DNA of 64,000 nucleotides from Patescibacteria group bacterium (lineage in GTDB: Bacteria; Patescibacteriota; Saccharimonadia; CAILAD01; JADZBC01). Below, piece by piece: positions 5,295 to 6,688 of this stretch (position 1 is the first letter of the stretch; each line of letters begins with the position of its first letter). The notes under the pieces are model-generated. The model saw only the letters and a program-made list of their open reading frames with translations, was not told the origin of the DNA and searched no databases. Both the position numbers and the translations under genes were made by a program. The stretch covers positions 14-64,013 of the forward strand of contig JBPOIL010000001.1 of the NCBI GenBank assembly GCA_052034495.1, in the 5' to 3' direction.

Positions 5295-5310
5295 AGCCCT
5301 CAGAGGGCAC

Positions 5311-5348
5311 AAAAAAAGGACCTAGCAATTACGCTGGGTCCTTCTTCG
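5311..5348 (+). terminator. hairpin terminator AAGGACC-N13-GGGTCCTTCTTCG (member of a repeated terminator motif family)
   Basis: Stem AAGGACC/GGGTCCTT then TTCTTCG, with an A-run on the other side. A similar element lies at 20635-20666 and a degenerate copy at 17247-17298. Confidence 0.5.
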
Positions 5349-5382
5349 TATATAGAAGAAGTTTATTGAAATTAAATTATTG

Positions 5383-5430
5383 CAAAAAAAACAGACCCTC
5401 CGTCCGGGCCCCGAAAGGTCCGGACGGCGA
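5383..5430 (-). terminator. strong hairpin + T8 terminator on minus strand (TCCGTCCGGGCC ... GGTCCGGACGG)
   Basis: 11-bp GC stem followed by TTTTTTTT on the minus strand. No minus-strand CDS lies upstream of it. Confidence 0.45.
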
Positions 5431-6688
5431 GCCATGGCAGCAACCGGCGCTGCAGCGTACCTCCGAGCGTTCCCGCGCTCGAGCCGCAATTCAGCCATGG
5501 GTGGCTGAAACAGGAGTTCGTACTCTCCTGCGCTCCTCGGGGGCCTAGGCCCGCGCCGAGAAGATTGTGGTCCCTGCACCCGATCGCTGGGCGGCGGCTC
5601 CACGCTTAGTCTGCTTCGGGAGCAGAGTCAGAAGCGCAACGCGGCCACCTTCTTGGGTGATTGCGTAAGGATCGACACGATTGCCCTAAGGCGCTCGATT
5701 GACCCCCGTGCATGTACGGGTGCAGGGACGTTTTGGACACCGAAGTGCCTCGAATCGTGAGCCCAGCTTAGGGGCGTCCGGGCTCTCGAGTGCCCTTCTT
5801 CCCCACAGCCGGCCAGCTGCTGGGACTCACGGTTTTGTGCGCAATTATGCGCATAGAGAGGACCCCTCCTCACACGCTATGATGCGGGGAGCTCACCCGA
5901 ATCATAGCGCTTGCTACTTTGCCGATTGATGGTCGGTGTTTTGCTGTGATTCGGGGGTAACTGTACACGGAGCCCAAGGGCTCAGCGTGTAGCGATGGAG
6001 CTCCCCTGGGCTGCTTGGGTATCAGGGACGTCGGCCCTCTACCTAGCGCGGTGGCCGGCCACCTGGCCCAGGGGGAGCAATTGTGCGCAGAGCCATTTAA
6101 GTCTCAACACGCGTCGAGAGGCCCAGCGGGTATTCGATACTAGTTTTGCTGACCACCTGGTGGGTGGGGCTCCACATATTGCGTACCGAGTTGGCCAACT
6201 ACCCCGCATGGGCACATCTTTACGAACTAATGCCTCAAGGAACTAAGCCGATTATATTCCCCGCGATAATTACCTGTCAAACGTAATCACTTTGCAGCTA
6301 ACCCGACCTTGGAGCAACAGGATCAATGAGTGCGAGACTTCAGCTTCGGCGAGGACTTAGCGTAAGCGATCCCGCAGCCGAATGCTCGTAAGTCGAAGCA
6401 TGAGACGAATCCTTGTTTGCGAACCCGTGGTCGGGAATACTTTTGACTACTTTTGGTATCTTCAAAAGTAGTAATACATAAAGCCATATTTCACTAAGTC
6501 ATTCGTTCTTTTGAAAGGGCCAAAAGAACCTAGAGCCCTTGCGACATAGGGCTCACATCAAGGAGTATCTGTTTGTTCTCGCCTATAATGTCGCTCCCAC
6601 TGCAAGTTTGAGGACTCTCGTGGTTAGCTCCGTCTAGGCTCTGAACTCCAGACTTCCTGATGTTCGAATGTCGCGGTTTCAGCGGCAG
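5431..6688. other. ~1.3-kb ORF-free region, GC-rich (5431-6250) then hairpin-rich (6250-6688); candidate structured ncRNA(s) or decayed genes
   Basis: No ORF longer than 85 aa in any frame despite ~60% GC. Perfect hairpins at 6445-6470, 6513-6537 and 6543-6565. Not classifiable by eye. Confidence 0.3.

Follow-up and report, generated by a model that had tools for sequence, protein, structure and literature searches.

A probable large structured RNA gene with changeable domains downstream of femAB in a clade of Saccharibacteria

What does a bacterium with a compact genome keep in a gap of about 2 kb that contains no long gene? The question is raised by a 64-kb stretch of DNA from a Saccharibacteria (TM7) genome, about 50% in GC (guanine plus cytosine) and here called the window, in which such a gap separates two tandem femAB-family genes for peptidoglycan-bridge transferases (7745-8713 and 6689-7744, minus strand) from a phosphomannomutase gene (3306 to about 4650, minus strand); tsaD and valS belong to the same surroundings. 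Most of the gap is made up of positions 5295-6688, which the original prediction had taken as one ORF-free, hairpin-dense region of 1.4 kb (ORF, open reading frame) and as a candidate large structured RNA, transcribed leftward to a terminator at 5383-5430. The RNA is supported by a promoter, by 13 related loci and by covariation, at a predicted length of about 855 nucleotides (nt; 6244 to about 5386, minus strand) rather than 1.4 kb. Only 5384-6244 is conserved; 6285-6688 is a spacer of which the closest relative alone shares a part, some of it inverted. The conserved part is a non-coding and structurally constrained unit between promoter and terminator signals, and we consider it highly probable that this unit is an independent gene for a structured non-coding RNA (ncRNA), referred to below as the RNA.

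The nearest public relatives of the window are metagenome-assembled Saccharibacteria or Saccharimonadia, and their loci were retrieved with the femAB protein as an anchor. L001-L004 are species-representative genomes with femAB identities of 92-77%, and ten further loci were taken from public assemblies through femAB homologues P0001-P0014; samples with contigs of this clade include SRR14932643, SRR14854376, SRR29870300 and ERZ28656156. The comparison set consists of 14 loci, the window and 13 relatives with femAB 77-92% identical; since the femAB identity drops sharply beyond them, from 77% to 57%, these loci form one isolated clade. Wherever the downstream sequence extends far enough, the loci are laid out alike: a promoter and the motif AGTTCYTT are followed by a GC-rich stretch with few ORFs and then by a very stable terminator. 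All 13 related loci carry one promoter equivalent to that of the window (Table 1) at the same relative place, of the form TTGAC[ACG]-17/18-TATA[AT]T or with TACAAT as the -10 box, and AGTTCYTT lies 6-7 nt past the -10 box in every one of them, so that the RNA would begin with AGUUCYUUG. At the other end, the minus-strand GC stem with eight T residues that had been pointed out earlier is indeed present at 5384-5433, with a folding free energy of -30.3 kcal/mol. Of the 13 relatives, 11 have a terminator of -30 to -39 kcal/mol with a T-run; L026 has the same hairpin with, by eye, an interrupted T-run, and the locus of L037 is cut by the contig end. The sequence of the terminator stem varies among lineages while its pairing is preserved. 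No other terminator was found on the minus strand between the start near 6244 and 5433-5384, and the predicted RNAs of the clade range from 454 to 896 nt. The GC content of the window RNA also stands out, being about 0.58-0.70, taken 200 nt at a time, against about 0.50 for the genome. Judged by these sequence predictions, the RNA has its own promoter and intrinsic terminator in a conserved position and orientation, as an independent ncRNA gene should.

The RNA evolves more slowly than the synonymous sites of the neighbouring gene, and without codon periodicity. Between the window and L001, the substitutions counted in femAB at the three codon phases are 146/31/11 (p = 1.6e-37; 1e-29 to 1e-40 over the pairs compared), whereas those in the RNA are 22/20/22 (p = 0.94), and ten other pairs likewise show no periodicity in the RNA (p 0.39-0.87). 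Insertions and deletions of 1-2 nt are frequent. The alignable parts of the RNA diverge by 11.6% in the same comparison, against 42% at femAB third positions, and are thus about 3.5 times slower. As predicted, 5295-6688 contains no long gene, although the limit of 85 amino acids (aa) given for its ORFs was too low: a 93-aa ORF with a GTG start occupies 5322-5603 on the minus strand, and another of 137 aa extends across the left edge. The scarcity of ORFs had been called unexpected at 60% GC. The region measures 55%, however, and its longest stop-free run of 101 codons compares with 129 +/- 31 in composition-matched random sequences, 18.5% of which have a run as short or shorter. Since this run is ordinary for the composition, the region merely has the look of non-coding DNA, and the unusual thing is to find so much of it in a compact genome.

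The hairpin density noted in the original prediction is above chance. Compared with dinucleotide shuffles, 5383-6246 folds with z = -4.1 on the minus strand and -4.3 on the plus strand, and the spacer at 6285-6688 with z = -4.8 on the minus strand. The comparative alignment that had been proposed as a check for covariation yields compensatory pairs beyond those of shuffled alignments in the two blocks for which nine sequences could be aligned. In block B (hairpin H1 and the multi-branch junction, 6112-6000), RNAalifold predicts 33 pairs with 95.1% of cells paired, and 8 pairs have changed on both sides, compared with 3.7 +/- 1.3 in the shuffles (none of 500 as high); when the alignment was slid out of register, 36-54% of cells were paired. 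Domain W4 together with hairpin H5 (5831-5736) has 27 pairs, 94.8% paired, with 12 compensatory pairs against 7.1 +/- 1.3 (0 of 500) and slid controls at 33-47%. Three further alignments of three sequences each gave 33 pairs for W3, 8 of them with compensatory changes, 52 for H6 with W5 (5 compensatory) and 62 for W6 with the terminator (5 compensatory). The composite consensus structure of the window RNA comprises 13 consecutive helix-closed domains with 199 canonical pairs (178 Watson-Crick and 21 G-U) against 3 A-C. The summed RNAalifold energies favour the minus strand (-258.8 versus -219.2 kcal/mol on the plus strand), in agreement with the direction of promoter and terminator, and G-U cells outnumber A-C cells by 115 to 24; part of this excess is to be expected from a structure predicted on the minus strand. 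Taken together, the G-U excess and the strand-asymmetric energies point to selection on RNA.

A covariance model of W4 and H5 (R1) finds exactly one copy in each clade locus, on the expected strand; the rest of the 64 kb has no copy, nor does any of 19 loci that are unrelated or distant. In two more distant Saccharibacteria (femAB 54-57% identical) the locus has no promoter-RNA-terminator unit; the position is taken by lepA in one of them and, in the other (L032, 5062-5778), by the gene for a protein of 238 aa that contains HEVGH, an HExxH motif, and matches no Pfam family. A metagenome scan with the femAB alignment returned just distant femAB homologues (at most 50% identity) and no additional RNA loci. 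As far as could be tested by sequence comparison, the RNA is found only in one Saccharibacteria clade of genus or family level.

Table 1 The RNA unit and its borders, in the direction of transcription (positions in the window)
Feature	Position	Strand	Description
Lineage-specific spacer, femAB stop to RNA promoter	6285..6688	-	outside the conserved RNA, upstream of its promoter
Sigma-70-type promoter	6251..6280	-	-35 TTGACA 6280-6275, 18-nt spacer, -10 TATAAT 6256-6251; 12 of 12 consensus positions
Predicted transcription start and conserved 5' end AGUUCCUUG	6236..6244	-	predicted start at A, 7 nt past the -10 box
W1, 5' segment	6114..6235	-	unique to this genome; own fold of -38.6 kcal/mol; no similarity to relatives
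Hairpin H1 (UGCRYR...YRYGCA, then CAAUUG)	6085..6112	-	in most relatives; compensatory AU->GC and CG->UG
Multi-branch junction domain (3WJ)	6000..6078	-	GCUCCCC/GGGGAGC closing helix, CCGG-loop hairpin; 9 sequences
Hairpin H3, of the H1 type (AUCGCU-hairpin-CA)	5963..5992	-	stem varies among relatives, still paired
Domain W3	5838..5958	-	helix-closed 97-nt domain and UGCGCA hairpin 5853-5838; this genome, L001 and L024 only
Domain W4	5756..5831	-	12-13 bp closing helix GUGAGUCCCAGC/GCUGGGCUCAC around a GGCC-loop hairpin and a nested hairpin; covariation
Hairpin H5 (GGCAC-UUCG-GUGUC)	5736..5749	-	sole internal element in every variant
Helix H6 GUCCCUGCACCCG/CGGGUGCAGGGAC	5570..5729	-	caps the 134-nt insert domain W5; perfect 13 bp, inverted repeat I3
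3' domain W6 ('type 2')	5437..5563	-	five consecutive hairpins; common to L001 and L021
Intrinsic terminator	5384..5433	-	40-nt GC-rich stem-loop 5433-5394, then GUCUG and U8 5391-5384
Two hairpins just outside the RNA	5311..5361		two-way terminator 5318-5341; second hairpin 5341-5361

Seen along its length (Table 1), the RNA keeps its pairing through considerable change of sequence. The consensus of the junction domain has a closing helix that is 100% paired and two inner branches, one of them itself nested. The stem of H3 reads TGCAGA/TCTGCA, TGCAGG/CCTGCA, TGCATC/GATGCA or TACACG/CGTGTA in the sequences of different relatives, and the hairpin type that H1 and H3 represent, AUCGCUGCA...UGCACAAU, recurs in one to three copies per RNA. 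The closing helix of W4 is GUGAGUCC.AGC/GCUGGGCUCAC, GUUUCGUCUAAG/CUUAGGCGGGAC or GUGGGUU/GAACCCAC, depending on the lineage, and the helix of H5 is 97.5% paired with 2 compensatory pairs. Two conserved hairpins bear palindromic 4-nt loops, CCGG at about 6058-6061 and GGCC at 5811-5814 (minus strand); in L026 the first of these is CUAG, which is palindromic too. By their sequence, the CCGG and GGCC loops could allow the RNA to dimerise through loop-loop (kissing) contacts. Within W3 (5875-5955, minus strand), the segment GCUAUGAUUCGGG can pair almost perfectly with a near-identical partner either upstream or downstream (inverted repeats I4 and I5). A switch between these X-Y and Y-Z pairings (5943-5955 or 5875-5888 with 5896-5909) was considered and set aside, as only the downstream Y-Z pairing is backed by L024.

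The most unusual property of the RNA is its modular turnover: its range of lengths arises from whole domains that have been gained, lost or swapped between close relatives. The sole parts that all variants have in common are the promoter, the 5' end, H5 and the terminator. The first 130 nt or so of the window RNA are unique to this genome; at the position of W1, relatives have either nothing or an unrelated domain of about 200 nt closed by its own covarying helix. The W5 insert (about 134 nt) is common to the window, L024 and L030 only. Of the 13 relatives, 11 retain helix H6, under caps that range from a short hairpin to about 135 nt, and three kinds of unrelated 3' domain exist, since relatives other than L001 and L021 have one of two others in place of W6.

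The RNA shows no membership in any described family that was tested, and we therefore place it, as a new family, among the orphan large structured bacterial ncRNAs, which are a known kind. Rfam 15 at gathering scores detected only four transfer RNAs (tRNAs) in the window, none of them in the RNA, and at E values up to 10 it gave five chance-level hits in 4900-7000, none inside 5400-6250. Among the relatives, L001-L004 returned nothing at gathering scores, and for five more the RNA stayed without a hit at E values up to 10. These searches covered RNase P, tmRNA, SRP, 6S, OLE, GOLLD, ROOL, HEARO, group I and II introns, T-box elements and riboswitches, and they bear out the earlier failure to recognise RNase P, tmRNA or SRP by eye. 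ARAGORN likewise reported only the four tRNAs, at 14.5-23.8 kb, and no tmRNA or tRNA-like element. Phage and plasmid collections showed no similarity by blastn in 'distant' mode, and a scan of viral contigs with the block-B pattern gave 0 hits. A pattern from the 3' domain of relatives, CCAAGCTRGTKGTGAYGCGC, did match seven viral contigs, all in one conserved coding stretch (…DEAKLVVMRR…) that is probably, by its sequence, a phage terminase; the match is coincidental, because its flanks are unlike the RNA. In the full-text literature, searches turned up no account of an RNA of this kind from Saccharibacteria or from other bacteria of the candidate phyla radiation.

Among known systems the closest in kind are GOLLD, ROOL and OLE, orphan large 'ornate' bacterial ncRNAs with variable peripheral domains around conserved elements (PMC12286853). 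Like them, the present RNA is large (0.45-0.9 kb) with many covarying helices and a GC content above that of the genome, has a promoter and terminator of its own, and has a function that is not evident from its neighbours. Unlike them, it shows much greater modular turnover with no large invariant core and is confined, as far as tested, to one narrow Saccharibacteria clade; it also has no covariance-model similarity to them at E up to 10. GOLLD and ROOL often occur beside tRNAs or in prophages and OLE has its partner oapA, while the present RNA has neither such a setting nor an oapA-like partner gene. A further RNA, raiA, is smaller than OLE, GOLLD and ROOL. With the protein-sequestering RNAs CsrB/RsmZ and 6S the RNA would share a stable, strongly transcribed and trans-acting nature and hairpin units that vary in number between relatives, and AUCGCUGCA...UGCACAAU recalls the recurring hairpins of CsrB/RsmZ; its domains are mostly dissimilar, however, rather than many copies of one short motif, and lack the GGA-loop pattern; the likeness is one of functional analogy only. 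Insertion of helix-closed domains at a fixed point of a conserved helix (H6) is also seen in the expansion segments of RNase P RNA and ribosomal RNA (rRNA), with which the RNA has no sequence-family similarity and from which it differs in that even central domains can be lost (L027, L030).

Is the RNA separate from the femAB transcript upstream of it? A long structured 3' untranslated region (UTR), or terminator zone, of the femAB operon that stabilises or ends the messenger RNA (mRNA) and has no function of its own is the best of the rival explanations, though an improbable one. In seven relatives the RNA promoter begins 4-16 nt past the femAB stop with no terminator between, so that transcription of femAB would continue through the RNA up to its terminator. 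A 3' UTR, however, would not need the full consensus promoter found in every locus, and 0.45-0.9 kb of covarying helices far exceeds what protection of an mRNA 3' end requires. Moreover, 222-520 nt of unrelated DNA separates femAB from the promoter in the window and seven relatives, with opposite-strand ORFs in six. The arrangement recalls MicL and DapZ of enterobacteria, small RNAs that derive from an operon's 3' end and have an internal promoter of their own: in the seven relatives, the upstream gene ends right at the RNA promoter, and RNA and operon have one terminator in common. The present RNA is five to ten times longer than these, has a conserved single-stranded seed only at its 5' end, and yielded no target complementarity.

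The femAB-promoter junction itself changes greatly. Seven relatives have 0 nt there, and the window has about 410 nt without an ORF (6281-6688). In L025 (5057-5444), L027, L028, L034 and L035 it holds 388 nt instead, with an 88-aa ORF on the opposite strand, and in L002 (2885-3405) it measures 520 nt and includes a 127-aa ORF resembling the GIY-YIG type, by eye only. The junction of L001 measures 222 nt, and L001 alone shares part of the window spacer. Compared in this way, the junction between the femAB stop and the RNA promoter is clearly an insertion hot spot. The three perfect hairpins that had been named in the AT-rich half of the region do exist, ACTACTTTTG/CAAAAGTAGT at 6446-6472 (inverted repeat I11) and GTTCTTTTG/CAAAAGAAC and GAGCCC/GGGCTC at 6506-6554, but they lie in this lineage-specific spacer and are no part of the RNA. 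With a weak femAB terminator-like site at 6554-6533, the spacer would be transcribed as the 3' end of femAB. A 135-nt piece of it (6541-6675), bounded by the short inverted repeats GCGACAT...ATGTCGC and with TATAAT at 6585-6590, is inverted in L001 and could be an invertible element or a mere rearrangement.

An insertion hot spot next to domains that come and go also brings to mind a nest of palindromic DNA elements resembling miniature inverted-repeat transposable elements (MITEs), whose helices would be terminal inverted repeats under selection at the DNA level or free of selection. Inverted repeats do bound the domains, W5 for instance being a 160-bp unit with perfect 13-bp ends, and domains are present or absent between close relatives. 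Mobile elements of the MITE or REP type would be expected in several copies, yet no domain of the RNA is repeated in the 64-kb window, no second copy was seen in the window or the fetched flanks, to which the search was confined, and R1 occurs once per locus. The region has only short two-copy direct repeats; at a score of at least 30, TRF found no tandem repeats in 4600-6800 and thus no array of the CRISPR, TIGR or type III toxin-antitoxin sort. Compensatory changes maintain the internal helices as well as the ends, the G-U excess and the energies favour the promoter strand, and H6 with its variable caps behaves as RNA expansion segments do. We therefore give this explanation little credence.

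Downstream, the RNA faces small ORFs on the plus strand. A 43-aa ORF of about 70% GC, MRKFKFGGQSHSRDTAAIRGAPEFALSTLAIPSDAVTHALEGG (4828-4959, GAAGGAG ribosome-binding site), is convergent with the RNA and has a counterpart of 32-47 aa in all 12 clade loci with sequence there. Nearly all of these peptides are alike in their N-terminal part and have an [A/C]RGAP[E/A] motif (in L004 RGRP instead) before a hypervariable C-terminus; to judge from its sequence, the product resembles a precursor from which a modified or secreted peptide is made, and it matched nothing in Pfam or NCBIfam. Past the ORF, at 5021-5046, comes the GC hairpin CGGGGGTGGGC/GCCCACCCCCG, which has 11 perfect base pairs and is conserved in relatives. 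A second ORF of 60 aa, MSTFSASLWERSPGV... (5112-5294, GGGAGA ribosome-binding site), is conserved as a protein in the two closest relatives only, L001 and L021, and has no family match in the same databases. On either side of it stands the hairpin GACCTAGC-6 nt-GCTGGGTC (5070-5096 and 5318-5341). Of the two hairpins next to the RNA terminator, GGACCUAGC...GCUGGGUCC (5318-5341) is a two-way terminator flanked by A7 and T-rich runs, and the other is CTTCTTCG...AGAAGAAG (5341-5361); they probably end the convergent small-ORF transcript.

That the RNA regulates the 43-aa peptide gene as an antisense RNA, of the type I antitoxin kind or another, seems to us slightly less credible still than the mobile-element explanation. 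Every clade locus does combine the two, GC content and rate of change are high in each, and the more distant L032 has neither. The convergent transcripts, however, do not overlap and each has its own terminator, and the energies of duplexes between the RNA and the start region of the peptide mRNA were no better than those of shuffles in 10 loci (z -1.7 to +2.3), so that no excess complementarity was detected. The peptide is not hydrophobic as type I toxins are, and type I antitoxin RNAs are about a tenth as long as the present RNA.

Least probable of all is that the stretch is decayed acquired DNA, a frameshifted pseudogene or the coding sequence of small proteins, as its deviating GC content, the L032 gene at the same position and minus-strand ORFs of 81 and 93 aa might suggest: the tools used rule this out as far as they can test, given the missing codon periodicity, the frequent 1-2 nt indels, the slow change and the conserved promoter, terminator and helices, and also a negative tblastn search with the 238-aa L032 protein against all gaps (best E 1.1), which disposes of a pseudogene of that HExxH protein, and nine ORFs of the region without a Pfam match above threshold (weak matches at E 0.1 and 0.3 for the 81-aa ORF are far below the cut-off). 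Elsewhere in the window, the left edge (1-2400) also departs from the average, with 62% GC in its first kilobase and listed ORFs of antisense-like amino-acid composition; it may hold a GC-rich gene running off the edge or another atypical island, and Rfam at gathering scores found nothing in it.

An independent RNA gene thus remains the explanation that we favour. The RNA would be transcribed from about 6244 on the minus strand, would owe stability to its terminator hairpin, and may accumulate as a stable, abundant molecule that acts in trans through its folded domains. On this view it would not act by base pairing with mRNAs or as a cis-regulatory leader. What is conserved in it are folded domains rather than single-stranded seeds, and its 5' motif has two matches in the window against 1.15 expected, one of them the motif's own complement. 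About 730 nt with convergent plus-strand ORFs lie between its terminator and the next minus-strand gene; there is no gene downstream for it to regulate, and it does not stand directly upstream of a gene on the same strand, as a riboswitch or leader would.

Several points weigh against this explanation. The start, the 3' end and the abundance of the RNA are predictions from sequence, and no gene for an RNA-binding or partner protein is adjacent. Of the five domain alignments, three hold only three sequences each, and the significance given by the shuffles is overstated for the other two as well, because the sequences are mutually related and the control does not preserve their relatedness. L027 has lost the junction domain and H3 by a deletion between GCACAATTG repeats, a type seen in three independent samples, since the L034 and L035 contigs from two other samples are identical to it in sequence; L030 lacks W4, and L001 and L021 lack H6. 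Domains that look important are therefore dispensable in nature, and this speaks against one fixed core for catalysis or ligand binding.

For the function of such an independent RNA, we can offer two suggestions. One, which we put forward tentatively as possible, is that it serves as a trans-acting scaffold or decoy and would bind at least one protein through its hairpins, namely the recurring ones of the H1/H3 type and H5. The other, which we think unlikely, is that it represents a new class of large RNA specific to Saccharibacteria whose domains are shuffled because the RNA acts in the conflicts or recognition of an episymbiont; this might concern host interaction, strain competition or phage defence and might involve an RNA-only or an RNA-protein particle. 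Hints of the latter are the palindromic CCGG, GGCC and, in one relative, CUAG loops, with their possible kissing dimers, and the constant company of the convergent small-peptide gene with its [A/C]RGAP[E/A] motif.

Beyond rRNA, RNase P, tmRNA and SRP, large structured bacterial RNAs are rare, and to our knowledge every one so far (OLE, GOLLD, ROOL and HEARO) has opened new biology or a new RNA architecture. Saccharibacteria have genomes of about 1 Mb with very little non-coding DNA, and a strongly promoted RNA gene of 0.45-0.9 kb that is kept throughout a clade of such tiny genomes therefore implies a real balance of cost and benefit. The short natural variants of about 450-510 nt, such as L027 with 454 nt and L026 with 513 nt, make the RNA tractable for structural work. 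Altogether, structural selection on each domain, combined with the rapid gain, loss and exchange of domains, makes this family a natural experiment in modular RNA evolution.

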